This document shows positions 44,777-60,677 of a stretch of 64,000 bases of DNA, one piece after another. Below the pieces are notes generated by a model that did not search any database, had not been told where the DNA came from, and saw nothing but the letters and a program-made list of their open reading frames with translations. The position numbers were made by a program, and so were the translations under genes. Positions within the stretch are counted from its first letter, which is position 1. Every line of letters begins with the position of its first letter. The DNA is from an uncultured Desulfospira sp. (lineage in GTDB: Bacteria; Desulfobacterota; Desulfobacteria; Desulfobacterales; Desulfobacteraceae): NCBI GenBank assembly GCA_963663165.1, contig OY760175.1:3200001-3264000 (forward strand), written 5' to 3'.

Positions 44777-45201
44777 ATATATTGTCTCACCTGTTTATCA
44801 AATTGTATTTCATGGCTCACAGCGGATTGCTGACAGCTAGAAAAAACCATAAGCACGACAGAAAAAAAGTAAACTAAAAATTGAGGAAGACCGCATAACG
44901 GAAGCCGCTTCAGGAACCGATACGGCATCTTGCCCTTGATCATGGACCAGGGGGGGGCAACCCCCTGAATTCCCCGGTTGGACAAAGGCCGATTGGCAAC
45001 TTGACAGCATCCGAATGCTGCCATTTGGTCTGTCAAAATTAATTTTTAATCTTTTTTTAACACGTTCCTTGACAAAAACTAACCTTACATCTTATATCAT
45101 TGCTAAAAAAGATAATTAGCCAAATAAAATATTTGTTATCTTATAAAAACAATTTGACAAGCTTGTTTGCTGTTAAATCGCTGCATATCAGGAGGCCTAA
45201 A

Positions 45202-45531
45202 TTGATTGGAAAACCGTTCCGGAAATTCTTACTGCCCCTGGCGATTTCATTCTTATTTTCCGCTTCTTCCATCGCCGAAACCATAACCTGTGAATACGAC
45301 CATCATAACCGGATTGTTAAAATGGAAAAATCCGATGATTACGTCATTGAGTATTTTTACGATGATGCAGGAAACCGCACACAAACCATAACCCAGGTTC
45401 AAAGCCCTGCATTTGACCATGATTCAGACGCAGACATTGACGGGGCTGACCTGCAGCATTTTATTTTGAATTTCAGCGGCTCCACCGGGGATCTTTTTGA
45501 TTTCTCGCAGATTTTCGGCACTCAAAACTGA
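45202..45531 (+). CDS. Small secreted YD-repeat protein with a dockerin/EF-hand-like tail
   Basis: GGAGG RBS and TTG start, signal peptide, YDHHNR..YFYDDAGNRT, DHDSDADIDGADL. Confidence 0.7.
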   Translation: MIGKPFRKFLLPLAISFLFSASSIAETITCEYDHHNRIVKMEKSDDYVIEYFYDDAGNRTQTITQVQSPAFDHDSDADIDGADLQHFILNFSGSTGDLFDFSQIFGTQN

Positions 45532-45551: not shown

Positions 45552-48500
45552 ATGCTTTCGTTTTTTGAGAAAAAAGATATTCCCCGAAAAAATAAAGCCC
45601 CTTCGGGGGGAACCAGACGGTCCGCATTTTGTGTTCCCTTGTTATGGCTTTTGTGTTTGATTAATCTTTGTGTTTTCACAGCGCCCCTGGTTCATGCCGG
45701 TGTATCCGGACCCGGATGGGCCAATGTCCGGGGCCAGGGGGTCACGCCTGAACAGGCAAAGGCATATTATGCACAAAAAAAAGCGCTATCCCTGGAAGCC
45801 ATGTCATTGCTTTCGGAAGAAGGATTGGCAACAGAGGCCACATCAGAAATTGTCGAATTGGCCCGGGGCCTGAACTACGAGCCCAAACTGATTTATGAGT
45901 ATGTGAAAAATCATGTGGACTATGTTCCCTATTTCGGATCGCTCAAAGGGGCCACCCTGACTTACCTTGACGGCTCCGGAAACGACTTTGACCAGGCATC
46001 GCTGATGATCTCTCTATTAAGGGCCAGCGGATATGAAGCCCAATATATTTACGGCACCATGGCCATCCCGGCCTGGGGGGCTGCCGGCCAAAAAGACATG
46101 CAGCACTGGCTGGGCGTCACTGCCGATAATATAGTCGCCGTTATCAATGTGGTCAATTCAATGCTGATAAACGGCGGCATTCCCGGAACCCCCGGCACAA
46201 CCTTTGAGATGGACCGGGTATGGGTCAGCGCCGTGATAGACGGGACCACTTATGTGTTTGATCCGGCGTTTAAGGTATATGAAACCGTTTCCGGAATAGA
46301 TCTTACAGACGCCATGGGATACGACCAGGCAGCGCTGCTTTCGGCTGCCGGCGGCACCCGGGGAACGGACTATATCCGGAATTTAAACGAATCCGCCTTA
46401 CGGACAAAACTGAACACTTACTCCGCCAGCTTATTCAACACCATCCGGGACAACACCCCCAACGCGCACATGGAGGAAGTCGTCGGCGGCAGGCAGATTG
46501 TTCCCGAGTATTCGGACGATCTTCCCACAAGTCTCGAGTTTACAGTCATAACTCAGGAAGATCCCTGGGATGAAATCCCGGATGAATACAGCCATACCAT
46601 CACTATCCGGCACGGTGGCATCGACATAACAAAAGATATAGCAAGCCTTGGGGGCAAACGGCTGTCTTTGACCTATCAGGATGCAGAAGGCAGCACAATG
46701 ACTGCTCTTTCAACAGATTCCCTTTTGTTCTTAACAAAAGCAGATACCGGGCTGTCGGCCGTCTCTATAGAGGGGCCGTCTTCGGTAGAAATGGGGCAGC
46801 CGGCCGACTCAACCCTGTCGCCGGATATACAGGTGACGGCTCCGGATATTGAGGGCGGCGGCATGATAAGCACCAAAGGGACGTCCAGCCAGAGTTTCGG
46901 GCGGATCTACCCGTCTTCTGTGGGATCAAGCTCGAGCTCGGTAACATGGGGGCCATCTGCTCCCAGCACCAATACGGTGACCATTCAACTTGTCGTAAGC
47001 CTGACAAGCAACCCCCAGAGTGCTTATACCATCACCGCCGGGTCGGGAACCCATAACCTGGCACCGGGAAAGGGTGTGAACGTTACGGTTAAATTTTCCA
47101 ACAGCGGACAGTCAGCGGGCACCAAAACCGGCCAACTGAGGTTTCAGTGGAAACATGGCGGGGCCGTTTTTCAAACCGACTATATCAACCTGACCGGCGT
47201 TGTGGCCAATGCGCCGGACATTTCCCTTGGAGGCATCAATTTCGGGCAGGCCATTTTGAACGATCCGCGCACGGCTACGGCCACACTGACGAACAACGGC
47301 TTAAAATATTTATCCCTGACAAGCAACATTGTATTATCAACAGGAAATACCGGCAGATTCCAGATCACATCCAATTACAGAACCGGAAACCTTGCCGCAG
47401 GCGCCACAAGAAATATGGGGGTTACGTATAAAGCAGATGTCCGGGGCTCACACGCTACAGGCATGGCACTCGCCTTCACCTACGACGAGTTGCCTTATAC
47501 CTGGACCTATTCCAATGTTCTGGCAGGAAGCACCCATTACGAACCTGACCTGACAGGGTCCTACAATCCGCCCTCCTGGCAGACATATATGGGGAACAGC
47601 AAATCCGGCAACTGCATTCTCAAAAATTCAGGAAGTTTAAACCTGTCTGTTACAAGCCTTGAAATTACCGGCACGGACGCAGCCCGGTTTGAACTTACAG
47701 GCAATACATCGGCTGGCACTCTCTCTTCCGGGCAGGAACGGGAAATTGAGGTTGAATACAAGGGAGACAGCGTGGGAAGCCATACGGCTTCCGTGCGGGT
47801 CTATTTTTCATATGACGGACGGGCAAGCTATGTTGACTTTTCCTTATCCGGCGAGACCCTTGCAACGCCATTGGCCCGGCTCTGGCTGGATGACACCCTG
47901 ATCGCAGAAGAGACCGCTCCGGTATCCGGGGACGACCTGGATACCATGTTCCTTACCATTACGCATCCTTATCCCGGAGAAGACGGGGATTTTGCCGATC
48001 AGGAAGACATTGAATACCCCATGAAGCGGGGCTCGAATTATTATACCATTATCTATGATTTTGGCGGCAGCCGGGATGGAAGGGTTCTTGAAAAACGCCA
48101 ACGGCAATTAAATACTTACCGCCAGTCCGGGTATGGGGATGGCTCCCGGGAGGTGATCACTGAAGCCCTTAATGTGATGGGCATGACCTGGATGCGGGAC
48201 ACCACGCTAAATGCAACACTGCTGGGAGAAATATCCGGTGTTTTGGGCACCTGGCACCACCGGTTCGGGGTGGTGGCCCAGGAGAGCGGGTATTATATTG
48301 ATGTCAAGGCCCAATCATGTTCCAGCACGTCAAGACACGGAGACGCCGGGGCTGAACAGGCGCATTTCAAGGCCATGAGCCATTTGGCCAGCGCCATGGA
48401 ACATGGGGTCCTGGAACAGATGCAGGTGGACAGCCCGGCGGTCTCGACCGTCAAGCTCTTTGCCCTCAGCAATGAAGCCGGAGATAAGATCTTTGAAGTC

Positions 48501-51500
48501 ACTTCCGATAACTATTCGGACATCGAATCTGAGCTTTCCAACTACAGCGACAAAGACCTGGCCACACTTCAGGCACTGGCAGCCGGCGGCAGCACCCTGA
48601 TCCTTCCGGCCAACGGCCGGATCGGCCTGGAAGCATGGGCCGGCAAAGCCTATATCGAATATGAAATTGAAGGTGACGGGGCCATGCACTGCGGCATGAT
48701 CATCGGCGGTGATTATTACGGCGGCTACAGCGTTTTAAAAGACCGGGCCGTTAACGCATATCAAACCGCAACAGCGGCCATTGCCCAAATATGGTCCTCA
48801 ATCACCGACTTTAAAATAGCCTCCACAGACCCGGTGGACATGGTCACCGGCACTTTTATGGCCAGCAATACCGATCTTGCCCTGGCCGGGGGCGCGGGCG
48901 GCCTGGCCTTTAAACGAAGCTATTTTGGGGCCAACCACCAGATGGACAGCATCCTTGGCTACGGCTGGTCTCACAACTGCGATCTGTATGCCCAGGTGCA
49001 TTCCAGCTCGCCCATGGGGCTTGGCACCCGCCTGCCCGCGGATGCAGCGGCCCTGATCACGGCATCGGTGGTGATCCTGGATCTCATGGCCGGTGATACG
49101 GATCTTGCGGACTGGATGGCCTGTGCCCTGACCGGCCAATGGGCCATGGACAACCTGACCGACAATGCCGTGAGCATCCACCTGGAATCCGATGTACTCA
49201 CCTATATCAGGCAGCCTGACGGCTCCTTTGGCCTGCCCCCGGGGGTGAATGCAAGGCTTTCCCTTGATTCGGGGGGGTACCGCCTGGATGACCGGTTCGA
49301 TAAAACCATCCTGTTCAATGGGGACAACAAAGTCAGCACCATCACCGATGCCGACGGCAACGCCGTCACATTCGCCTATTCCGGGGATAACCTTGCTTCG
49401 GTATCCGATGATTTCGGGCACAGCCTCACCTTTGCCTATTCCGGCGAAAAGCTCTCTTCGGTAACCGACTCCGCGGGAAGAAGTGTTTCCTTTAACTATA
49501 CCGGGGATAACCTGGCCACTTACACCGACCCGGAAAACAAGGCCTGGGTCTACGGGTATGACTCAGACCACCGGATCACCACCCTGGCCAACCCGGAAGG
49601 CATTACCACGGTCACCAATGCTTACGACAGCCTGGGCCGGGTCATGACCCAGACCGTGCCAAGGCAGTCCGGCACGGCAGGTTACAACCTTTACTTTACC
49701 GGATACCGGAACATTGAAGAAGACAGTGACGGCAACCAAACCATATACCACTACGACCGCCGCCAAAGGCTGATCGCCCTGGAAGACGCCCTGGGCAGCA
49801 AGACAAGCCATTCTTATGACGGCCAGAACCATGTCATCCAAACCACCGACCCCCGGGGCAACACCACCCTGTACGAATATGACGGCAGCAACAACCTTGT
49901 CATGTCAACCGACGCCCTGGGCTATGAGACCACCAATGTTTATGACGTGGATTTTCACTTAACGGATGTAACCGATCCCCTGGGCAATCTGGTCCACTAT
50001 AAGTTTGATGAAGAACACCACCTGGTCAACACCGCAGTATACCCGGAGTCCGGCCAGAGCATCGAAACATCTGCCACGTTTTACGCCAACGGCCTGCCCC
50101 ATATTTCAACCGACGCAAGGGGCATTGCCACCACCCTGACCTATGACGCTTACGGCAACCCTGCCGCCAGCCAGACCGCATCCGCCCCGGCCGTCACCTA
50201 CACTTATGACGGAACCGGGCTGATGACGTCCCTGACGGACCAGAAAAGCCAGACCACGGCATTTGCCTATGACAACCGGGGCCTATTAGAGACCCGGACC
50301 GATCCCCTGAGCAAATCCATGGTCCTGGCCTATACCGGTGACGGAAAAATCAGCACCATCACGGACAGGAACAACGATACGGTGACTTATGCTTATACGG
50401 ATTCAGGCAAGATCGGCACGGTCTCCTTCCCGGCCGGGACTCCCATCACATACACCTATGATAACCGGGACAACCTGGTTGCCATGGCGGACAGCACAGG
50501 CACCACCGCCTTTGCCTATGATGCGGTCAACCGGCTGGTTGCCCGGACCGACGCCAGAGGGTTCACCGCAGCATACACATACGATGAAGCCGGAAACCCG
50601 GCCACCCTGAGCTACCCGGACGGCAACACCGTCACCTACACCTATGATGAGCTCAACCGCCTTGCAACGGTCACAGACTGGCTGGGCCGGACCGCAGTAT
50701 ATGATTATGACGCTGCCGGCCGGCTCACCACGCTCACCCAGTTCAACGGAACCCGGGCCGATTACACCTATGACAACGCCAACCGGCTCACCGGCCTTTC
50801 CAACCTGGCCGAAACCGGCGGTGACGTCATTGCCTCCTATTCCTTTACCCTGGACGGCAACGGCAACCGGACCGGCGTCACCCAGGAGACTCCCTTAACG
50901 CTGAACCTGACCGCCGCCACCGTGGATTACACCGTGGGCAGCGCCAACCGCCTGGAAAGCGCCGGCACCGGCAGCTTTGCCTATGACGATGAAGGGCAGC
51001 TCATCTCCGCTTACGGCAGCACCCTCACCTTTGACTATGAACACCGGCTGACCGGCATTGCCGGTGAAACAACAAGCCAGTTCAAATACGACGGGGCCGG
51101 CAACCGCCTGGAAGCCGACCGCAACGGGACTGTTACCCGGTACATCTACGACGATTCGGGCAACCTCCTGGCCGAGGCGGACAGCAGCAACCAGATTACC
51201 CGGTACTACATTTACGGGGCAGGCCTCCTGGCCATGGTGGACACTGCCAACACCATGTACTGCTACCACTTTGACGCCACCGGCCACACCATTGCCATGA
51301 CAGACAATGCCAAAGCCATTGTCAACGCCTATGCCTATACCCCCTTCGGCATCCTCGCCAATCAAACCCAAACCATTGAACAGCCGTTCAAGTTCGTGGG
51401 CCAATACGGGGTCATGGCCGAAGACAACGGCTGGTATTATATGCGGGCCAGATATTATGACCCGGAAACCGGCCGGTTCATCTCGGAAGACCCGCTCGGA

Positions 51501-51950
51501 TTTGACGGCGGAGATGTTAACCTGTATGTTTATGCCTCAAATAATCCTGTTATGTTCATTGATCCGTTGGGATTGTGTACGGAATATAATTCAGGAACAC
51601 TTTTCCGTACGCTAGTTCCTGGGCAAATTGCATGGGATAATGCTATGACTTCATTTAACCAAGGAGATTATACTTCTGCTGGTCTATCTACAGTTGAAAT
51701 GCTTGGAGAGCAAGTGTTGACAGTATTAACATTAGGTGAAAGCCAGGCAATTGCTCAATCAAGCAAACAAGCTACAGATGCTGCATTTAAGTATGCTTTT
51801 GGGAAAGGGGGTCTTCTTAACAGTAACAGATACCTTCGATTAGGTGTCGGTCGAAAAGGAGGGGAAAAAGTATTTCGTGCTAGTGGGCAGTGGATAAATA
51901 AAATTTCAAAATCAGGCCACATTGATCTTTTTAAAATGGGGAAATTATAG
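45552..51950 (+). CDS. Rhs/YD-repeat polymorphic toxin with signal peptide, transglutaminase-like and Ig-like N-terminal domains
   Basis: Hydrophobic leader ending VHA; GSGNDFDQASL.LLRASG; DPVDMVTG; YD repeats; RARYYDPETGRFISEDP...NNPVMFIDPLG; AT-rich C-terminal tip. Confidence 0.92.
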   Translation: MLSFFEKKDIPRKNKAPSGGTRRSAFCVPLLWLLCLINLCVFTAPLVHAGVSGPGWANVRGQGVTPEQAKAYYAQKKALSLEAMSLLSEEGLATEATSEIVELARGLNYEPKLIYEYVKNHVDYVPYFGSLKGATLTYLDGSGNDFDQASLMISLLRASGYEAQYIYGTMAIPAWGAAGQKDMQHWLGVTADNIVAVINVVNSMLINGGIPGTPGTTFEMDRVWVSAVIDGTTYVFDPAFKVYETVSGIDLTDAMGYDQAALLSAAGGTRGTDYIRNLNESALRTKLNTYSASLFNTIRDNTPNAHMEEVVGGRQIVPEYSDDLPTSLEFTVITQEDPWDEIPDEYSHTITIRHGGIDITKDIASLGGKRLSLTYQDAEGSTMTALSTDSLLFLTKADTGLSAVSIEGPSSVEMGQPADSTLSPDIQVTAPDIEGGGMISTKGTSSQSFGRIYPSSVGSSSSSVTWGPSAPSTNTVTIQLVVSLTSNPQSAYTITAGSGTHNLAPGKGVNVTVKFSNSGQSAGTKTGQLRFQWKHGGAVFQTDYINLTGVVANAPDISLGGINFGQAILNDPRTATATLTNNGLKYLSLTSNIVLSTGNTGRFQITSNYRTGNLAAGATRNMGVTYKADVRGSHATGMALAFTYDELPYTWTYSNVLAGSTHYEPDLTGSYNPPSWQTYMGNSKSGNCILKNSGSLNLSVTSLEITGTDAARFELTGNTSAGTLSSGQEREIEVEYKGDSVGSHTASVRVYFSYDGRASYVDFSLSGETLATPLARLWLDDTLIAEETAPVSGDDLDTMFLTITHPYPGEDGDFADQEDIEYPMKRGSNYYTIIYDFGGSRDGRVLEKRQRQLNTYRQSGYGDGSREVITEALNVMGMTWMRDTTLNATLLGEISGVLGTWHHRFGVVAQESGYYIDVKAQSCSSTSRHGDAGAEQAHFKAMSHLASAMEHGVLEQMQVDSPAVSTVKLFALSNEAGDKIFEVTSDNYSDIESELSNYSDKDLATLQALAAGGSTLILPANGRIGLEAWAGKAYIEYEIEGDGAMHCGMIIGGDYYGGYSVLKDRAVNAYQTATAAIAQIWSSITDFKIASTDPVDMVTGTFMASNTDLALAGGAGGLAFKRSYFGANHQMDSILGYGWSHNCDLYAQVHSSSPMGLGTRLPADAAALITASVVILDLMAGDTDLADWMACALTGQWAMDNLTDNAVSIHLESDVLTYIRQPDGSFGLPPGVNARLSLDSGGYRLDDRFDKTILFNGDNKVSTITDADGNAVTFAYSGDNLASVSDDFGHSLTFAYSGEKLSSVTDSAGRSVSFNYTGDNLATYTDPENKAWVYGYDSDHRITTLANPEGITTVTNAYDSLGRVMTQTVPRQSGTAGYNLYFTGYRNIEEDSDGNQTIYHYDRRQRLIALEDALGSKTSHSYDGQNHVIQTTDPRGNTTLYEYDGSNNLVMSTDALGYETTNVYDVDFHLTDVTDPLGNLVHYKFDEEHHLVNTAVYPESGQSIETSATFYANGLPHISTDARGIATTLTYDAYGNPAASQTASAPAVTYTYDGTGLMTSLTDQKSQTTAFAYDNRGLLETRTDPLSKSMVLAYTGDGKISTITDRNNDTVTYAYTDSGKIGTVSFPAGTPITYTYDNRDNLVAMADSTGTTAFAYDAVNRLVARTDARGFTAAYTYDEAGNPATLSYPDGNTVTYTYDELNRLATVTDWLGRTAVYDYDAAGRLTTLTQFNGTRADYTYDNANRLTGLSNLAETGGDVIASYSFTLDGNGNRTGVTQETPLTLNLTAATVDYTVGSANRLESAGTGSFAYDDEGQLISAYGSTLTFDYEHRLTGIAGETTSQFKYDGAGNRLEADRNGTVTRYIYDDSGNLLAEADSSNQITRYYIYGAGLLAMVDTANTMYCYHFDATGHTIAMTDNAKAIVNAYAYTPFGILANQTQTIEQPFKFVGQYGVMAEDNGWYYMRARYYDPETGRFISEDPLGFDGGDVNLYVYASNNPVMFIDPLGLCTEYNSGTLFRTLVPGQIAWDNAMTSFNQGDYTSAGLSTVEMLGEQVLTVLTLGESQAIAQSSKQATDAAFKYAFGKGGLLNSNRYLRLGVGRKGGEKVFRASGQWINKISKSGHIDLFKMGKL

Positions 51951-51970
51951 ATTGTCTATGTAGAATTATC

Positions 51971-52249
51971 ATGAAAAAACTTACAACCTTTCAAATAAAA
52001 TGCGAAGATAAGGCGATGGAACTCTTATCCCGACATGGTATAGTTCTTCAAAACAGAAATTTAGGTGGAGAAAGCGAAATTTATATCCATGCTCGATTAA
52101 AGGATACGGAAATTTGGATTTATGAAGATGAAGCAATGATTTACGGGAATGGAAAAGACATCCGTTTTGAGTCCCCAGACTATGATACGGAGGATCAATT
52201 GATTGAAGCCTTTATTTCTGGTTTAAAATCTGTGCTTAACAGTGATTAA
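51971..52249 (+). CDS. Putative immunity protein for Rhs toxin 1
   Basis: Small acidic AT-rich ORF directly after the Rhs tip. Confidence 0.65.
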   Translation: MKKLTTFQIKCEDKAMELLSRHGIVLQNRNLGGESEIYIHARLKDTEIWIYEDEAMIYGNGKDIRFESPDYDTEDQLIEAFISGLKSVLNSD

Positions 52250-52327
52250 GGAAAATACTTATAAATTTCACCCCGATTCAGGAACCTGGCAAAAGGCCAT
52301 GGGGCCAGGTTTGACATTCTGACATAC

Positions 52328-52366
52328 TAACACCGGGTCTTGATCGCTGATCAAGACCCGGTGTTA
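52328..52366. repeat. Perfect 18-bp-stem hairpin
   Basis: taacaccgggtcttgatc-gct-gatcaagacccggtgtta; truncated copy at 57482-57513. Confidence 0.8.
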
Positions 52367-52650
52367 TTTTTAACTGCCTTAAAAGTCCCTTGAAGGGCAC
52401 CATGTTGAGCGAGGCGAATAAATCACCGTTGAGCAGAGCGAATAAGGCAGGACGCAAAGTAGACCCCTTTGAAAAAGTGGGCCTACTTTGCATGTCCTGT
52501 CACCCTAACGCTCTATCTTTTTATGGCTTAATCTGATTTTTTATATTTGATATGTGGCGGGGTCGGGCCGAGCTAATAGAGTGAAATATATGAAAATACC
52601 ATTAAAAGATATCCTTAAAACAGGCTTAAGTTGACGTTTTTGGGTGCAAA

Positions 52651-54804
52651 ATGAACGTTATAAGAAAGTGGCCGGAACCATGTGATCAAACCACCGCCCC
52701 CCGGGGCAACACCACCTTGTACGAATATGACGGCAGCAACAACCTTGTCATGTCAACCGACGCCCTGGGCTATGAGACCACCAATGTTTATGACGTGGAT
52801 TTTCACTTAACGGATGTAACCGATCCCCTGGGCAATCTGGTCCACTATAAGTTTGATGAAGAACACCACCTGGTCAACACCGCAGTATACCCGGAGTCCG
52901 GCCAGAGCATCGAAACATCTGCCACGTTTTACGCCAACGGCCTGCCCCATATTTCAACCGACGGCAGGGGCATTGCCACCACCCTGACCTATGACGCTTA
53001 CGGCAACCCTGCCGCCAGCCAGACCGCATCCGCCCCGGCCGTCACCTACACTTATGACGGAACCGGGCTGATGACGTCCCTGACGGACCAGAAAAGCCAG
53101 ACCACGGCATTTGCCTATGACAACCGGGGCCTATTAGAGACCCGGACCGATCCCCTGAGCAAATCCATGGTCCTGGCCTATACCGGTGACGGAAAAATCA
53201 GCACCATCACGGACAGGAACAACGATACGGTGACTTATGCCTATACGGATTCAGGCAAGATCGGCACGGTCTCCTTCCCGGCCGGGACTCCCATCACATA
53301 CACCTATGATAACCGGGACAACCTGGTTGCCATGGCGGACAGCACAGGCACCACCGCCTTTGCCTATGATGCGGTCAACCGGCTGGTTGCCCGGACCGAC
53401 GCCAGAGGGTTCACCGCAGCATACACATACGATGAAGCCGGAAACCCGGCCACCCTGACCTACCCGGACGGCAACACCGTCACCTACACCTATGATGAGC
53501 TCAACCGCCTTGCAACGGTCACAGACTGGCTGGGCCGGACCGCAGTATATGATTATGACGCTGCCGGCCGGCTAACCACGCTCACCCAGTTCAACGGAAC
53601 CCGGGCCGATTACACCTATGACAACGCCAACCGGCTCACCGGCCTTTCCAACCTGGCCGAAACCGGCGGTGACGTCATTGCCTCCTATTCCTTTACCCTG
53701 GACGGCAACGGCAACCGGACCGGCGTCACCCAGGAGACTCCCTTAACGCGGAACCTGACCGCCGCCACCGTGGATTACACCGTGGGCAGCGCCAACCGCC
53801 TGGAAAGCGCCGGCACCGACAGCTTTGCCTATGACGATGAAGGGCAGCTCATCTCCGCTTACGGCAGCACCCTCACCTTTGACTATGAACACCGGCTGAC
53901 CGGCATTGCCGGTGAAACAACAAGCCAGTTCAAATACGACGGGGCCGGCAACCGCATAGAGGCCGACCGCAACGGCGTGATTACCCGGTATATCTACGAT
54001 GCTTCGGGCAACCTCCTGGCCGAGGCTGACTCCGAAAACCAGATTACCCGGTACTACATTTACGGGGCAGGCCTCCTGGCCATGGTGGACACTGCCAACA
54101 CCATGTACTGCTACCACTTTGACGCCACCGGCCACACCATTGCCATGACAGACAATGCCAAAGCCATTGTCAACGCCTATGCCTATACCCCCTTCGGCAT
54201 CCTCGCCAATCAAACCCAAACTATTGAACAGCCGTTCAAGTTCGTGGGCCAATACGGGGTCATGGCCGAATACAACGGCTGGTATTATATGCGGGCCAGA
54301 TATTATGACCCGGAAACCGGCCGGTTCATCTCGGAAGACCCCTTGGGATTTGACGGTGGGGATATCAACCTGTATGCGTACGCCTCAGGGAATCCACTGA
54401 CCTTCATTGACCCCAATGGGCTGTGTATTAAAGCTGCATGGGATACGACAACGAATACTATTTTACCGGGAGCAGGGAAAGCCTTTAGTGAGGCAGGAAA
54501 AACTTTATGGTCGGAAAAAGAAAAAATTGTAGCCGGTGTGGGCAAAGGACTGTATGAAGGAGAAAAAGCTATCCCTACAATATGGAATGATGGTGGTCCA
54601 CTTGCGAAAGGTGTCTTATCTTTTGCTGGATTAACAGTAATCTTACCAGCAAGCTATGTCATGCCTGCTTCAGTGGCCGAATTTGCAGGTGGATATTTAG
54701 AATATCATTCATTGCCAGCAGCTACAGGTCCTGGCATTGGAGGTTTTGTTACAGGTAATATTGTACCGTATATAGACTCTCGATTAGACCCCAAAACATG
54801 GTGA
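52651..54804 (+). CDS. Orphan Rhs module: duplicated core plus a different C-terminal toxin
   Basis: 52687-~54341 nearly identical to 49839-~51493; new tip after DPNG; no leader, so the start is probably not genuine. Confidence 0.88.
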   Translation: MNVIRKWPEPCDQTTAPRGNTTLYEYDGSNNLVMSTDALGYETTNVYDVDFHLTDVTDPLGNLVHYKFDEEHHLVNTAVYPESGQSIETSATFYANGLPHISTDGRGIATTLTYDAYGNPAASQTASAPAVTYTYDGTGLMTSLTDQKSQTTAFAYDNRGLLETRTDPLSKSMVLAYTGDGKISTITDRNNDTVTYAYTDSGKIGTVSFPAGTPITYTYDNRDNLVAMADSTGTTAFAYDAVNRLVARTDARGFTAAYTYDEAGNPATLTYPDGNTVTYTYDELNRLATVTDWLGRTAVYDYDAAGRLTTLTQFNGTRADYTYDNANRLTGLSNLAETGGDVIASYSFTLDGNGNRTGVTQETPLTRNLTAATVDYTVGSANRLESAGTDSFAYDDEGQLISAYGSTLTFDYEHRLTGIAGETTSQFKYDGAGNRIEADRNGVITRYIYDASGNLLAEADSENQITRYYIYGAGLLAMVDTANTMYCYHFDATGHTIAMTDNAKAIVNAYAYTPFGILANQTQTIEQPFKFVGQYGVMAEYNGWYYMRARYYDPETGRFISEDPLGFDGGDINLYAYASGNPLTFIDPNGLCIKAAWDTTTNTILPGAGKAFSEAGKTLWSEKEKIVAGVGKGLYEGEKAIPTIWNDGGPLAKGVLSFAGLTVILPASYVMPASVAEFAGGYLEYHSLPAATGPGIGGFVTGNIVPYIDSRLDPKTW

Positions 54805-54811
54805 AAAAATA

Positions 54812-55132
54812 ATGAACTTTTGGCGTGTATACATAGGGCTTGGTTTTATAATTTGGGGTATTTTTGTTAATAGAACTGGATACATTGCTAAATATGGATA
54901 CCAGGTTCCTCCAGAGGTTGGAATTTTTATTATTTTTTGTGGTTTAATATTTTTATTTATAGGTTTTTTACCAACAAAGAAGATTAAAAAACATAAAAAA
55001 TCTTTATTCTGTCCACACTGTAAAAAAAAATATCCTAAAATACATATTCAAATCCCAGTTTGTCCGATATGTAATGGCAAATTAATTGAGTATAGAAATT
55101 TGAAAGACAATGATGCCGGCAGGCAAAAGTAA
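54812..55132 (+). CDS. Putative immunity protein (2 TM + Zn ribbon)
   Basis: AT-rich, two hydrophobic segments, CPHC...CPIC. Confidence 0.65.
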   Translation: MNFWRVYIGLGFIIWGIFVNRTGYIAKYGYQVPPEVGIFIIFCGLIFLFIGFLPTKKIKKHKKSLFCPHCKKKYPKIHIQIPVCPICNGKLIEYRNLKDNDAGRQK

Positions 55133-55180
55133 TGGGAAAAAGTGGGACGCCCTTAACTTTTGATTCCTGTGAAGCAACTA

Positions 55181-55246
55181 GATAAATGGATAAATGGGGT
55201 CAGAGTAAAATTATTTTTATGACGTTCGATTTTACCCTGATCCCAA
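55181..55246. repeat. GGGGTCAGAG element, short/degenerate copy
   Basis: gataaatg-gataaatggggtcagagtaaaattatttt...gattttaccctgatccca. Confidence 0.8.
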
Positions 55247-55275
55247 ATCCGGTTTGACCGAGTGTTCCAGTTCAC

Positions 55276-55375
55276 CTACCCCCAAACCGTCACCGACGGC
55301 AGGGGTATTGTTACAACCTTTACCTATGACAATTACGGTAACCCGGACACCACCCAGACAGCCAATGCCCCGGCC
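55276..55375 (+). pseudogene. Diverged Rhs core fragment
   Basis: Encodes LPQTVTDGRGIVTTFTYDNYGNPDTTQTANAPA versus LPHISTDGRGIATTLTYDAYGNPAASQTASAPA in the orphan Rhs. Confidence 0.8.
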
Positions 55376-55392
55376 ATTGACAATGGACAATG

Positions 55393-55468
55393 AATGGGGT
55401 CAGAGTAAAATTATTTTAAAATTCCCAATTTTTGGGCTACGTTTAATTTTACTCTGACCCCAAAATTC
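55393..55468. repeat. GGGGTCAGAG palindromic element (near-complete)
   Basis: 18-bp IR, 30-bp spacer, AAAATTC end. Confidence 0.9.
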
Positions 55469-55500
55469 GACTCCGCGGGAAGAGGCGTTTCCTTTAACTA

Positions 55501-57377
55501 GTGCCTGACCGGAAATTGGAACCATCATATTTTCCAGGGGTATCTGGGCTGAAATTCGTTTGAAGTTTCTGTTGTGATATGAATTACTTGTTGCTTTTTA
55601 CTAATCACTATGTTAATCTAACCCTATAAAATTATATAGGATTTATGTTTTGTGAGACAAGCCAATAGTAATTCAAACTTCAACATTCCATCAGAACTTC
55701 GAGGTCGTTTTGCGTAAAATTTTTGAACTACAGATGACATTCGGGCAGACCCCTATCGATCAAATTAAAATTGATATGAGAGCCAGGGATGAAATCCCCA
55801 AACTTCTTTTGGGACTCCAACATATCTATTGCGACCAGAGTCTTCGACAAAAAGTTTTTGATATCCTCACGGACATGATCCCAGAAAGTACCGATTCTAA
55901 AAATGGACGTCCCGGTATGGACCTGTGGAAGATCCTTGTAATGGGCGTCATTCGGCTCAATTGCAATTGGGATTATGATAAACTCCAGGAAATGGTGAAC
56001 AACCACAAAACAATAAGGCAGATGCTGGGGCATGGCATGATGGACAATGATATCGCCTACCCCCTTCAGACCCTGAAAGATAATGTCAGGCTTATGACCC
56101 CAGATATTCTTGAAAAATCAACACTCTGGTTGTGCAAGAAGGCCATAAACTTCTGATGAAAAAAAACTTCGGACGATGGAGCCTTGATTGGGCGGTGTGA
56201 TTCATTCGTTGTAGAAACCAATGTTCATTATCCCACAGATATCAACCTGCTTTTTGATGCAGTCCGAAAAATGATTCAAATTGCCGCTTATTATCAGCCA
56301 GGACATTGGAACGAGTATGTGGCGGCAATCAGCGTATAATATTAAAGCATTTAAAAAGCTTTATCGAATAGTCCAGCGTTTGAAACATTCCACATCAAAG
56401 GATGAAAAGAAAAAGGCCAAAAGAGTCCAGCAAATTATGGATGCCCATACAGCATATATCAAGCTTGCTGAAAAATATATTCAAAAGGCGCGATTGACCG
56501 TGGAAATGATACCGGCATCCGATATTATATGTGCAGCCCGAGCTGAAGAATTACAAACATATATCAACTACGCACTTTGGCAAATTGATTTGATCAAACG
56601 CCGGGTGTTACAGGATGAAAAGATCCCCCATGAAGACAAGATTTTTTCGATTTTCGAACCCCACACGGAGTGGATTTCAAAAGGCAAGGCCGGTGTTCCC
56701 CAGGAATTGGGCTTGCGGGTATGTATCCTGGAGGACCAATATGGCTTTATCCTGCACCACCGGGTGATGGAGAAAGAAACCGATGATAAAGTCGCCGTTG
56801 CGATGGTAACATTGGCACAAAGCAAATTTTCTGATCTCAAAGGATGCAGTTTTGATAAAGGGTTTTACTCTCCAGGCAACAAAAAGGACCTGAAGGGCAG
56901 ATTGGATATTTTGGTGCTTCCGAAAAAAGGCAGATGCAACAAGGCGGAATATGAAGAAGAAACAGCGGAAGATTTCATTCGTTTTAAAAGAAAACATTCA
57001 GCGGTGGAATCTGCCATAAACGGACTGGAAAATCATGGTCTTGACAGATGCCCGGATCATGGCATTCAAGGGTTTAAGAGGTATGTGAGCCTGTCGGTTT
57101 TGGCAAGAAATCTCCAGATCATCGGGCATCACATACAACAAAAGGGATTAAAAAAGCTGCAAGGGTCTGAACAGCGCAAAGCAGCTTAAAACAGGCCATT
57201 GCTTAAAAAAAACACGGCAAACACTACAGTTGCGTCCGGAAAAGGAGAAAGTTGCCGAAAACCGGCAGAGATGGAAGCATTTCTCCCGGTTTGTGATGAC
57301 AGGAACAACAAAGATTTAAGGTTTTGTCAAACATCGACCCCCTGAAAATTTCAAAATCGGGGTTTCCGGTCAGGCAC
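55501..57377 (+). mobile_element. Insertion sequence (ISNCY/IS5-like DDE), 1877 bp
   Basis: 15-bp perfect IR gtgcctgaccggaaa / tttccggtcaggcac; 6-bp duplication TAACTA (55495-55500, 57378-57383) inside an Rhs fragment. Confidence 0.9.
55710..57189 (+). pseudogene. DDE transposase, frameshifted
   Basis: GRPGMDLWKIL, DSFVVETNVHYPTD, KIFSIFEPHT..I.KGK, FDKGFYS, HSAVESAIN spread over different frames. Confidence 0.85.
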
Positions 57378-57440
57378 TAACTATACCGGAGACAACCTGG
57401 CCACTTACACAGACCCGGAAAACAAGGTCTGGACCTATGG
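57378..57440 (+). pseudogene. Rhs core fragment (continues 55469-55500 across the IS)
   Basis: Matches rhs ~49468-49556 (DSAGR.VSFNYTGDNLATYTDPENK.W.YG). Confidence 0.85.
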
Positions 57441-57512
57441 CCATGGGGTCAGGCTTGACATTTTGACATTTAGGTAAAAGCAACACCGGGTCTTGATCGC
57501 TGATCAAGACCC

Positions 57513-57659
57513 GATAAATGATAAATGGGGTCAGAGTAAAATTATTTCGGATAAATGGGGTCAGAGTAAAATTATTTCGGATAAATGGGGTCAGAGTAAA
57601 ATTATTTTAAAATTCCCAATTTTTGGGCTACGTTTAATTTTACTCTGACCCCAAAATTC
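57513..57659. repeat. GGGGTCAGAG element with tandem 30-bp left-end copies
   Basis: gataaat + 2x gataaatggggtcagagtaaaattatttcg + full 80-bp unit at 57580-57659. Confidence 0.92.
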
Positions 57660-57660
57660 G

Positions 57661-57822
57661 GGATTAGTTGTTGGTCCCGGGGATAATATTTTTGGTTTTA
57701 ATGTTGGAATAGTTGTTGGAGCCAGCGTTGGCCTTCCTATAGAGACTTCAATCTCAAAGAATACGACTTGGGCTACAGGTGCCTCTAATACTACAAGCGG
57801 TTCTACTGCCTGCTTGAAGTGA
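57661..57822 (+). pseudogene. Probable truncated Rhs C-terminal toxin tip
   Basis: Open frame GLVVGPGDNIFGFNVGIVVGASVGLPIE...STACLK* with no start, followed by an immunity-like gene. Confidence 0.55.
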
Positions 57823-57868
57823 TATTGTATTTTTAAAAATTTAATGATCTAATTTTTAACGTGCCATT

Positions 57869-58183
57869 ATGGAAAACACTACCAACAAAGCGAAAAACGA
57901 ACTTCGTATTGCTTTTAAAAAACGTCGAATAGGCTTTCTGATAATATTGTCTTTTATTCCTATAGGATCACTAATTGTTGAGGTTGGCAAATCTTCTATT
58001 TGGGTAGGAATATTTATTTTTACATATCTACTTTTTATTGGTTATTTTCTTTCCAGAGTTTTATTGTACAGGTGTCCTCGTTGCAAAAATATCTTTCTTG
58101 GGCCTTCTTCAAGAATTAAATTTGTAACAAATAGATGCTATTATTGCGGTCTTAGTTTAGAAGAAGATAATCCGAAAAAATGA
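57869..58183 (+). CDS. Putative orphan immunity protein (2 TM + Zn ribbon)
   Basis: AT-rich, two TM segments, CPRC...CYYC. Confidence 0.6.
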   Translation: MENTTNKAKNELRIAFKKRRIGFLIILSFIPIGSLIVEVGKSSIWVGIFIFTYLLFIGYFLSRVLLYRCPRCKNIFLGPSSRIKFVTNRCYYCGLSLEEDNPKK

Positions 58184-58228
58184 ATACCACCAGTAAACTG
58201 GTGGTTTCATGAGGCCCCCCTAAAGGTG

Positions 58229-58322
58229 GATAAATGGGGTCGGATAAATGGGGTCAGAGTAAAATTATTTTAAAATTCCCAATTTTTGGGCTACGTTTAA
58301 TTTTACTCTGACCCCAAAACTC
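58229..58322. repeat. GGGGTCAGAG element with one partial left-end copy
   Basis: gataaatggggtc-g + 80-bp unit at 58243-58322 (end AAAACTC). Confidence 0.9.
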
Positions 58323-59072
58323 AGAAGAAGGTCGCCAAAGCCAAGGTAAAAAAAAATTCCTGAAACAGACATCATTTTTGAATATGTGCATAGGACAAAC
58401 CAACTAGCCGATGAAACAGATGGCGTTTTACGTATCTCAATGGACGCAAAAGCCACTATTAAAATAGGGCCTTATTCCCGAGGCGGATATAGTCGTTGCA
58501 ATCTTAAAGCGGCGGACCATGATTTTAAACCCGATTCCCTTTTGAAACTTTTCGGTATCAACATACCTGCTCTGGATGAAAATTATATGTACTTCACTGA
58601 AAGCAACATCACCTCTGATTTCATGATTGATGCGCTGGAATCACTCTGGCCTTCTTTGAACGCAAGATTCGCCCCACATACACTGGTGATCAATCTTGAT
58701 AATGGGCCGGAAAATAGTAGCCGAAGGAGCCAATTCATTAGTCGCCTCGTGGACTTTGCCAAATCAGCATTTGTAAATATTAGTTTGGTGTACTATCCCC
58801 CGTACCACAGTAAATACAACCCAATAGAGCGAGTTTGGGGTGTTTTGGAAAATCATTGGAAAGGCGAATTGCTGAACAAAATTGAAAAGGTTCTCGGTCT
58901 ATGTCGAACAATGACATGGAAAGGAGAAAATCCTGTCGTCAAATTAATCAAAGGTGTTTACCCGACAGGGGTACGTTTGGTCAAGTCCGCCGTGAATAAT
59001 ATAGAAAACAAAATTATTCGGATTCCAGGGATTGAAAAATGGGCTGTTGATATTCCATGCTATGAGGAATGA
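58323..59072 (+). pseudogene. ISAzo13-like transposase, 5'-truncated
   Basis: IPETDIIF, ISMDAKA, ADHDF, LDNGPENSSRRSQF, YYPPYHSKYNPIER. Confidence 0.85.
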
Positions 59073-59155
59073 ATTGTGGGTTTTAATTTTACCACATCCC
59101 TTATTGTCTTAACGCTGTCTTGTATCCTAACCGGTATTTTATAAGAGTAAAAGAA

Positions 59156-59370
59156 GATAAATGAGATAAATGGATAAATGGGGTCAGAGTAAAATTATTT
59201 TAGATAAATGGCGATAAATGGGGTCAGAGTAAAATTATTTTAGATAAATGGGGTCAGAGTAAAATTATTTTAAAATTCCCAATTTTTGGGCTACGTTTAA
59301 TTTTACTCTGACCCCAAAATTCTAAAATTCCAGACCCCAAAATTCCAATTTTACTCTGACCCCAAAATTC
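59156..59370. repeat. GGGGTCAGAG element with multiple partial copies of both ends
   Basis: Full unit at 59243-59322, five left-end partials and three right-end partials. Confidence 0.92.
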
Positions 59371-59868
59371 CGTGGTGCCGATGACCATGAAAAACATGCC
59401 ACAGGCCTTTTTTGATAAAAAACCATGTACTTGAGCTGCTCTCCAACTGGATGGCAATATCCCAGATAATGATGGTGCTCGATCAGGCTATTGAACAATG
59501 CCTCATTGGGGGTATTTTTAACCAGTTCAATATCAAGGGGTGTGAGCTCATTAAGACCGGCCGTCACCCGGGTTTGATCTATCTGTATTTTTGCCGATTT
59601 TTTACGGTTCAAAAATGGATTATTGGGAGTCTGTTTTCTGGCTGGAAGGGGTGATATGCCCCTGCCTGTGAAGTGCCAGCATGTATCCTCTGGCAATCAT
59701 GTCACGAAGATTACCGTTGAGCTGAACCCAGTTCCATTCCTCGCACAGCATTTTTGACAATGCCAAACGGCTGTCTTGGGGGTTATCCTTTATTAACCGG
59801 TTTATGAAGGCAATATCATCCCGGGTTGCCGTCCTGCCTCTATATGTAAGTACGATGTCATCTGTCAT
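59371..59868 (-). pseudogene. DUF4338 (IS-associated) protein, frameshifted and truncated
   Basis: SRLALSKMLCEEWNW.Q.NG, HHYLGY...GEQLKY. Confidence 0.75.
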
Positions 59869-59913
59869 GGCAACGTCTTATAATAGATTTTGGGTTCGAA
59901 CGTACGAAAAAAA

Positions 59914-60267
59914 TTATGCAGACAGCTTTTTCCATGCCGGGGCTGCCCTGGTATTAAACGGATCACCGTTCCATAGCAGCATTTGAAGTTCATGCGCATC
60001 AAGGGTTTTGCATCCGGTTGCGTTTACCGGCCACCATTTAAAACGGCCTTGGGATAACCGCTTCTGGCATAACCAGAAACCTTGAGAGTCATAGCATAAT
60101 ACCTTTATGGCTGTTCGTCTCCGGTTGATAAATACAAACAGGTATCCGGAAAAAGGATCGGAATGGAGTATCTTCCGGCATAACCCGGCCAGGCCGTCAA
60201 TGCCTTTCCTGAAATCTACCGGATCAACAGCCAGTAAGATCTTCATATGAGGTGTGATCTGGATCAT
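59914..60267 (-). CDS. tnpB: IS66 family accessory protein TnpB
   Basis: PVDFRKGIDGL, LFVFINRRR, YDSQGFWLCQKRL..GRF.WWP. Confidence 0.9.
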   Translation of the reverse strand: MIQITPHMKILLAVDPVDFRKGIDGLAGLCRKILHSDPFSGYLFVFINRRRTAIKVLCYDSQGFWLCQKRLSQGRFKWWPVNATGCKTLDAHELQMLLWNGDPFNTRAAPAWKKLSA

Positions 60268-60677
60268 GGCAGTCCCTCAAGAAAATATCTGCCAAGATCA
60301 ATGGCCGCGGGATCTGCCCGCCCCCGGAAGCACATGCGCAGCTTTACTCCGGATGGTTTTTCCATCTCTATGATGCAATCCGTGGCGGCAAATGGCGGTT
60401 CCAGTTCAACAAATGTGGCTGGCTCATCCTCAATGGGTTGTATGGCAACCGGCGGGCTTGCTGTGATGTGTAATTTCAGGTCTGTATAATTGAGCCTTAA
60501 AGTCCGGGCAATCTTGTTTATACTCAGGTTATAAGAATAAAAAAGATTTACAGCCGCAGACCATAATGAATCCGGAATACATCCGATTTTTGTCCGCGTT
60601 TCTCTCCAGGCTGCAAACTGTTGTGCCACTTTTTCAAGTGCTGAATACTGTTTGCCTGTCAGCTTTGTTTTATTCAT
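60264..60677 (-). CDS. IS66-type TnpA-like HTH protein
   Basis: F.AWR...IPDSLW.AAV.L, FVEL motif; overlaps the tnpB start. Confidence 0.75.
   Translation of the reverse strand: MNKTKLTGKQYSALEKVAQQFAAWRETRTKIGCIPDSLWSAAVNLFYSYNLSINKIARTLRLNYTDLKLHITASPPVAIQPIEDEPATFVELEPPFAATDCIIEMEKPSGVKLRMCFRGRADPAAIDLGRYFLEGLP

Follow-up and report, generated by a model that had tools for sequence, protein, structure and literature searches.

The Rhs tail and its 80-bp repeat unit

We analyzed a 64,000-nt stretch (hereafter, the window) of the 6.74-Mb genome of an uncultured Desulfospira sp. (the source genome, G000), in which a short repeat, the 80-bp unit, recurs downstream of a large Rhs gene next to truncated toxin, immunity and transposase genes. 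Each unit comprises two copies of a 17-mer terminal inverted repeat (TIR), GGGGTCAGAGTAAAATT, hereafter the arm, with a 28-nt spacer and 7-nt tails. Positions outside an arm are counted from the GGGG of its TIR end, −7 being the seventh base outside it, and partial copies of an end are referred to as stutter copies. The locus comprises the following features (window coordinates, strand):

45552-51950, plus: main Rhs/YD-repeat protein, a 2132-aa open reading frame (ORF) with a C-terminal tip; Pfam RHS_repeat and DUF6531, TIGR03696 core
51971-52249, plus: probable immunity gene 1, assigned from its position; 92-aa ORF straight after the tip, no family match
52295-52550, plus: second repeat element in its longer copy, with a perfect hairpin and a GGGG-type end of TIR family F
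52651-54804, plus: orphan Rhs of 717 aa with a different tip; its core duplicates the main one at 97% identity
54812-55132, plus: putative immunity gene 2, a membrane protein with a zinc ribbon
55181-55253, plus: one 8-nt stutter copy and a degenerate unit with a different spacer
55253-55385, plus: Rhs YD-repeat fragment between two units; 78% identity to Rhs over 84 nt
55389-55468, plus: 80-bp unit, copy 1; 28-nt spacer between two TIR arms, tails of 7 nt
55469-57437, plus: Rhs core fragment running from the unit's right end to an F-type end; 94% identity to the main Rhs
57438-57512, plus: hairpin-bearing F-type element, truncated at the leftmost stutter copy
57513-57579, plus: stutter array of partial left ends, each starting from the −7 G
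57580-57659, plus: 80-bp unit, copy 2
57661-57822, plus: headless Rhs toxin tip, the last 53 of ~136 aa; 89% identity to a 136-aa tip
57869-58183, plus: probable immunity gene 3, orphaned
58229-58322, plus: one stutter copy and 80-bp unit, copy 3
58324-59101, plus: 3′ part of ISAzo13, its 5′ part lost at the unit end; 99.6% identity to intact copies
59104-59152, plus: 3′ end of a probable immunity gene, complete in the sister species (G001); 96% identity to L153:5662-5716
59157-59370, no strand assigned: 80-bp unit, copy 4 (59243-59322), between a left stutter array and a mirrored right array that ends at 59370
59372-60677, minus: IS66-like element, its DUF4338/DruA gene cut at the last right end

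The four full units are highly similar (78/80 identical positions for 55389-55468, 79/80 for 58243-58322), and a degenerate unit lies at 55189-~55253. A first-pass annotation of the window had already listed the four full units and the degenerate one, although it started the first at 55393, 4 nt short of 55389. All four share an identical 66-bp core in the same orientation, which has no match elsewhere in the genome even when 8 mismatches are allowed. The arm has 15 matches in the window (14 exact and one with 3 mismatches), all within 55196-59363, where shuffles give a mean chance expectation of 0.19, and genome-wide it has 24 exact matches and 35 at ≤2 mismatches; the earlier statement that the repeat occurs nowhere outside the Rhs tail hence holds for the 80-bp unit, but not for the arm. 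The unit folds into a hairpin (z = −6.8) whose 19-bp stem encloses a loop region of 28 nt and leaves tails of 6-7 nt unpaired, and a single arm folds like shuffled sequence (z = 0.0 and −0.7). The arm starts with GGGGTCAG, conforming to the consensus GGGG[AT][CG]A[CG] of the TIRs that accompany TIRYT transposase genes, and lacks a GTAG/GTGG foot. Partial end copies around the units all begin at the G 7 bases before GGGG and finish variably, and the right end (59323-59370) is the mirror image of the left stutter pattern. No Rfam match was detected over window positions 51900-60000.

Sequences abutting the units are truncated, and comparison with intact relatives upheld each of the five truncations proposed in the first-pass annotation. 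The Rhs core fragment starts directly at a unit end (55468/9) and is itself interrupted by an ISNCY-like insertion sequence (IS) at 55499-57379. The frame at 57661 was recognized by database search as the end of a toxin tip, whose 136-aa relative begins with MFSDPLGL, i.e., the DPLG core end; direct comparison of the 53-aa frame with two tips of the sister species yielded no significant match. ISAzo13 is cut at 58323 relative to ~20 intact copies, the DUF4338 gene at 59371 relative to an intact copy, and the hairpin at 57513 relative to the longer copy at 52295-52550. The joins thus disregard gene limits, with cuts inside the tip, the Rhs core, ISAzo13 and DUF4338. The orphan Rhs at 52651-54804 does not start at a recognizable TIR end, and the second repeat element of the 52295-52550 type is also present three times at Rhs tails of the sister species.

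A boundary fixed at position −7

We next consider where the ends of this repeat stop. The seven positions flanking GGGG on the outside are AT-rich across 187 distinct ends taken from other genomes, and beyond −7 the information content drops. A partial copy lies directly upstream of 26 of these 187 ends, as opposed to 3 of 658 control positions, and stutter was likewise found at 12/50 ends of other TIRYT genes. In this family (26 stuttered ends), the copy lying upstream agrees at −7 in 25 cases, at −8 in 12 and at −9 in 6; the 17 stuttered ends of other families gave 13, 10 and 7 matches, respectively. Stutter copies are 13-39 nt long (those shorter than 13 nt escape the anchor used in this measurement), and most joints (26/36) contain 0-1 extra base.

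When 14 junctions were compared to intact references, 8 fell within 0-1 nt of −7, 3 within ~4 nt, and 3 were unreadable, so that breakpoints do lie 7 nt outside GGGG, as the first-pass annotation had predicted. No partner-site motif was seen at these junctions, and microhomology did not exceed 1 nt at the 8 clear ones. Target mimicry was considered and set aside, only 2 of the 8 clear partner sites being somewhat end-like. No target-site duplication was seen at the window units, the flanks of which all differ, and none of 10 sites compared (6 in the sister species, 4 of another TIR family in the source genome) provided a clean filled/empty pair. Given the fixed boundary and partner sites without a visible motif, one side of each joint is therefore fixed while the other is free.

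These patterns bear on two explanations that involve no transposase. The junctions could be assembly artefacts at a repeated hairpin: the window copy of the ISNCY-like element (55499-57379) differs from read contigs by three indels, and short-read contigs break at repeats, so that not every junction is bridged. Read runs X11, X12, X13 and X16 were used here, X1-X10 being left out of the evidence (small shares only). X11 coverage is continuous, with no high-depth alternative joint (the one seen had a depth of 7.6 and a side of 22 nt), and the stretch 57579-58207, including the junction at 57659, is reproduced without any difference in an X16 contig. Since the independently assembled sister genome has the same unit at the orthologous locus, and stutter occurs in many unrelated genomes, we regard an artefact as extremely improbable. 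The ISNCY indels may represent copy-specific damage or assembly error.

Alternatively, the unit could be a passive fragile site, a hairpin that blocks replication forks or attracts cleavage by host nucleases, with stutter and deletions then arising from slippage or from end repair, without a transposase. The stable hairpin, the lack of an intact cognate enzyme (see below) and the extra joint bases, which fit host repair, are in line with this scenario. It is at odds with breaks that fall outside the stem at one fixed offset, with a polar stutter that always starts from −7, with little-structured lone ends that stutter and break likewise, and with the near absence of microhomology at the 8 clear junctions; we thus consider a fragile site quite unlikely.

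The unit is a miniature TIRtron

Elsewhere in the source genome, two inward-facing pairs of arms bracket a Y1/HUH gene (G000:3023527-3024298 and 4947520-4950175), and the second copy is interrupted at 4947.8 kb by the same ISNCY-like IS as window 55499-57379. At 1242220, a third left end and the first codons of the Y1 gene are joined to a fragment of Rhs core. Intact genes of 231-235 aa lie inside the same arms in genomes G004 and G019 and in a Desulfobacter locus (L165, L166, L067), one of them at L165:3553-4254. The first-pass annotation had proposed a non-autonomous element of a HUH/RAYT-type enzyme (RAYT stands for a tyrosine transposase associated with REPs, these being repetitive extragenic palindromes) that is not encoded in the window, and a Y1 transposase flanked by the same motif is exactly what these two loci and the relatives provide. 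The HVH and YIELNP motifs are invariant in 7/7 aligned proteins; the gene product scores above the cut-off for Pfam Y1_Tnp and just below it for NF047646 (78 bits, cut-off 80), and its closest PDB match is Escherichia coli TnpA-REP (4er8). Its length of 233 aa, without a long C-terminal extension, suggests an affiliation to subclass 2.1.1.

Free TIRs occur as singles, dimers and clusters, and the genome encodes several further TIRYT genes; each has a GGGG-type end and miniature copies of its own, and many of the latter are stuttered. The 80-bp unit is thus a miniature, enzyme-less TIRtron of the TIRYT/group-1 RAYT class. The unit is not a REP/REPIN, as the arms are the TIRs of a TIRYT gene and no GTAG-type REP is present. 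REP/REPIN sequences of RAYT groups 2/3 were likewise rejected as candidates given the low copy number, with 24 exact arms and the 80-bp unit found four times within 4 kb.

Both copies of the cognate gene in the source genome carry an identical frameshift near the start, as confirmed by short-read contigs. With no indel in the X11/X12 contigs at this place, an assembly error was rejected; a programmed frameshift was also rejected, with no in-frame slippery site recognized by eye and intact relatives that lack the shift. The presence of two copies with the same frameshift at different loci fits movement in trans.

We also considered that another enzyme acts on these ends, either a DDE transposase, the unit being a miniature inverted-repeat transposable element (MITE), or a reverse transcriptase that would switch to a template end at a fixed position, with addition of untemplated bases. 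DDE elements typically carry TIRs and leave adjacent deletions, and a reverse transcriptase gene adjoins one arm (L074). However, any gene bracketed by the arms is a Y1 gene, no DDE transposon shares these TIRs, no target-site duplication is apparent at the window units, and the conserved repeat ends 7 nt inside the break, which together make another enzyme very improbable. At the L074 locus, on a Desulfobacula contig (2686-3603), the arm is flanked by a reverse transcriptase fragment and a ParE toxin gene.

Two further observations concern the interplay of mobile elements in this genome. A hybrid miniature, in which an end of this family is paired with an end of a different TIR family, occurs at G000:C1:912997, 1225564, 1245890 and 1246392; it has multiplied, with three of the four copies in one Rhs locus, which suggests cross-family recognition. 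In addition, another TIRYT gene carries an IS200 insertion (G000:C1:804960).

Rearrangements between sister species

The orthologous Rhs gene of the sister species is 94-96% identical with different tips, and its tail contains the 80-bp unit twice, at junctions unlike those of the source genome. The first of these units retains 70 identical bases and has its right arm cut. The second is whole (93-95% identity); directly after it come 268 bp from the end of an Rhs core, then a new tip with a probable immunity gene, i.e., an orphan toxin-immunity module begins at the end of the 80-bp unit. Six other sites of the sister species yielded 0 clean insertions when compared to the source genome: one occupies the place of 12.3 kb of another Rhs gene, and at another, a truncated gene is linked to parts of a third Rhs locus. 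In the opposite direction, a 460-bp Rhs remnant precedes the source-genome TIRYT gene at 3023.5 kb, and this Rhs continues in the sister species and in X13/X16. Among four source-genome sites of another TIR family, three are at synteny breaks, including one inversion; at one such break the match stops ~280 bp short of the element. Within this genus, the idea that the element has cut, duplicated or replaced Rhs modules is therefore well founded. A RAYT of another group with REP-like flanks was also noted after the Rhs tail of the sister species (L153:14887-15429).

A proposed nick-and-join model

We think it reasonably likely, judging from the scars, that these ends are generated by a fixed nick 7 bases outside GGGG made by a 5′-bound enzyme, and are then joined to any free 3′ end. 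TIRYT would nick one strand (the GGGG strand) between −8 and −7, stay bound to the 5′ end, and join it to whichever 3′ end is available. The 3′ end left by the nick could prime short strand-displacement synthesis before rejoining, resulting in a partial end copy, i.e., stutter, whereas a 3′ end located elsewhere would lead to an adjacent deletion, duplication or inversion. Through such chemistry, copies would multiply locally and chop up their surroundings. The model would account for why stutter is polar, why partner sites are free, why joints contain extra bases but no target duplications, and why copies of one spacer variant cluster locally. Rhs tails probably keep the resulting wreckage as tolerated or useful material, such as orphan immunity genes and orphan tips, rather than being targeted.

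Related enzymes offer a precedent. HUH enzymes nick single strands and hold the 5′ end, and the covalent RAYT link can be resolved by an outside 3′-OH, as described in parts of PMC8266576. An amplification model for bacterial interspersed mosaic elements (BIMEs), as outlined in sections of Ton-Hoang 2012 (PMC3333891), invokes a nick, priming from the 3′-OH and attack on the Tyr-5′P bond. The chemistry proposed here would be the same, with one fixed nick at −7.

Several observations weigh against this model. No TIRYT biochemistry was found in the literature searched, and nick and strand transfer are therefore read from scars. The source genome contains no intact cognate TIRYT gene, and the sister species no gene closer than 36% to the cognate query, and yet one window junction postdates a recent ISAzo13 insertion. 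Twelve of 21 internal Rhs fragment boundaries in the source genome lie away from any recognizable end. The fourth source-genome site of the other TIR family is shared and stable in both species, and with 5-15% DNA divergence between the two, part of the synteny breaks may have nothing to do with the ends. Given the broken cognate gene of the source genome, the latest events were probably driven in trans by an intact copy since lost or by a related TIRYT.

Association with Rhs loci

The first-pass annotation had further proposed that the element could be a dedicated diversification system for the Rhs locus. In such a scenario, domesticated ends would be kept at, or aimed at, polymorphic-toxin tails, making orphans and discarding toxins. 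Within the source genome, Rhs tail zones (2.5% of the genome) include 22/89 TIR sites compared to 9/110 multicopy IS-like segments, although these sites are not independent, and 5 of 41 loci remain in tail zones after merging sites into 20-kb loci. Nine of the 21 internal Rhs fragment boundaries tallied are at TIR ends, including the orphan starts at 1227431 and 4418156. In the sister species, 4 of the 8 sites with this arm are Rhs-related. Seen from the Rhs loci, TIRYT genes were detected at 4/77 metagenome loci and in 2/20 arrays, compared to 0/20 control regions, and at one locus (L298) an orphan module begins at a TIR.

This picture changes across a broader range of sites and genomes. In the source genome itself, 8 of 18 arm sites are outside Rhs tail zones, and TIR family C has none of its 17 sites in Rhs tails. 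A scan of our genome collection listed at least 139 loci with the arm, 80 of them with flanks, to which the following flank counts refer: an Rhs core was found at only 3 of 80, all on 2 contigs, leaving 77 without, and the nearest ORFs at 67 of these loci are mostly ordinary genes, e.g., uvrB, tyrS, gidA, radA and mutS. Two genomes (G019 and G031) have 40 and 23 arm copies, respectively, and no Rhs core match. None of 29 TIRYT loci has an Rhs core within 1.5 kb. Most orphan arrays of other genomes do not begin at such ends, and a generic detector of stuttered or inverted-repeat ends gave no excess in their Rhs arrays (2 sites in 252 kb) over controls (1 in 380 kb).

At the level of the order, we compared the best 150 of 379 Rhs matches to the best 150 of 429 TIRYT matches and, as a control, the best 150 of 163 IS110 matches, ISAzo13 being too rare in the order. 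These lists were matched by eye after dropping the rows of the source genome (6 TIRYT and 4 IS110). Among the matches listed, 4/144 TIRYT and 2/146 IS110 are within 5 kb of an Rhs core. Near Rhs, the two kinds of element are thus about equally frequent.

Overall, the link to Rhs is strong within this genus and weak beyond it. Rhs tails collect mobile DNA generally, and a dedicated role is not supported: neighbors elsewhere are mostly ordinary genes, many copies occur without an Rhs core, IS and other genes are cut too, and most products in the window are broken. We accordingly judge a dedicated Rhs diversification system quite unlikely; in the case of an integron-like cassette system, sites would also not be expected outside the Rhs locus or cuts inside genes. 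A bolder proposal, in which TIRYTs are one-ended joiners kept by selection at polymorphic-toxin loci for creating orphan modules and stripping toxins from immunity genes, also appears unlikely. If true, it would represent an undescribed, homology-independent route to Rhs diversification via TIRYT joining. In this genus, TIRYT elements are nonetheless a main breaker of Rhs loci, and can thereby provide raw material for toxin/immunity turnover, even if undedicated.

Fragments of the 1.21-1.27-Mb Rhs locus were also found 300 kb away (G000:C1:911582-913116), bounded by ends of several TIR families. In another genome, an IS110 lies directly beside a TIRYT gene at two Rhs tails (G157:C4:45404-47127 and C1:2044389-2045924), which may reflect a duplicated segment or IS110 targeting TIRs.

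Relation to known systems

Bacterial MITEs, IS-promoted adjacent deletions and the one-ended rolling-circle transposition of IS91/ISCR elements are among the closest known systems. As in these systems, we observe a short, TIR-bounded, non-autonomous unit with one fixed end and variable partner sites; unlike them, the enzyme is a short Y1 protein of RAYT type, each end behaves as a fixed 5′ end, the two being on opposite strands, and target duplications were not observed. Arrays of orphan Rhs C-terminal (Rhs-CT)/immunity modules are renewed by homologous recombination. The window resembles such arrays in that core fragments, alternative tips and immunity genes come after a main Rhs, and tips differ between the two sister species; in contrast to these arrays, many edges here are set by transposon ends rather than homology, and most products in the window are headless.

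The element belongs to the known but barely studied TIRtron/TIRYT class. TIRtrons, their TIR families with the consensus GGGGWSAS, and free TIR dimers were described by Di Nocera et al. 2013 (PMC3733652, consulted in part, as were the other articles cited here), TIRYT was equated with TnpA-Y1 subclass 2.1 and RAYT group 1 by Quentin et al. 2018 (PMC6006769), and RAYT group 1 is also treated in Bertels et al. 2017 (PMC5581495). The passages available from these papers describe, as observed here, a Y1/HUH gene between GGGGWSAS TIRs, free singles, dimers and clusters, and several TIR-specific families per genome, whereas a cut site, a 7-nt tail, stutter arrays, adjacent rearrangements and a link to Rhs do not appear in them. 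In the text of PMC3733652, ‘rhs’ has 0 occurrences, and the present TIR may be included in its Figure 9 or supplements.

Likenesses to TnpA-REP and BIMEs in the sections available of PMC3333891 and PMC8266576 include an HUH enzyme with a Tyr-5′P link resolved by an outside 3′-OH, and a proposed rolling-circle-like local amplification that leaves copies alike at one locus. REPs are described there as hairpins with a GTAG tag, cleaved at CT or CA over many distances; the present TIR ends are non-palindromic, the boundary is a single one at −7, no conserved dinucleotide was seen, and partial units are added.

The fixed −7 boundary, stutter arrays and rearrangements were not found in the literature searched, which covered neither figures and supplements nor subscription papers; no link of a RAYT/HUH transposase to Rhs or polymorphic-toxin cassettes was found there either, nor any paper showing what subclass 2.1 Y1 proteins do. 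These proteins were reported in ~15% of strains (PMC6006769, in the part consulted), and we detected TIRYT in 102 of 151 genomes of this order. The scars described here suggest that TIRYT elements are a common and overlooked source of deletions, duplications and inversions, and would act as general genome rearrangers rather than a toxin-specific machine. They further yield a specific prediction, namely a cut between −8 and −7 of the GGGG strand and joining to any 3′ end.

In another genome, ~10 TIRYT copies of another TIR family form an array at G091:C1:3856000-3894000 (L387, L388), interleaved with small toxin-antitoxin-like genes (recognized by eye from the ORF list) and IS66 pieces. Finally, in the window itself, the N-terminal part of the main Rhs protein (45552-51950) bears transglutaminase-like and Ig-like domains, and a small ORF with one RHS repeat precedes it at 45100-45531.

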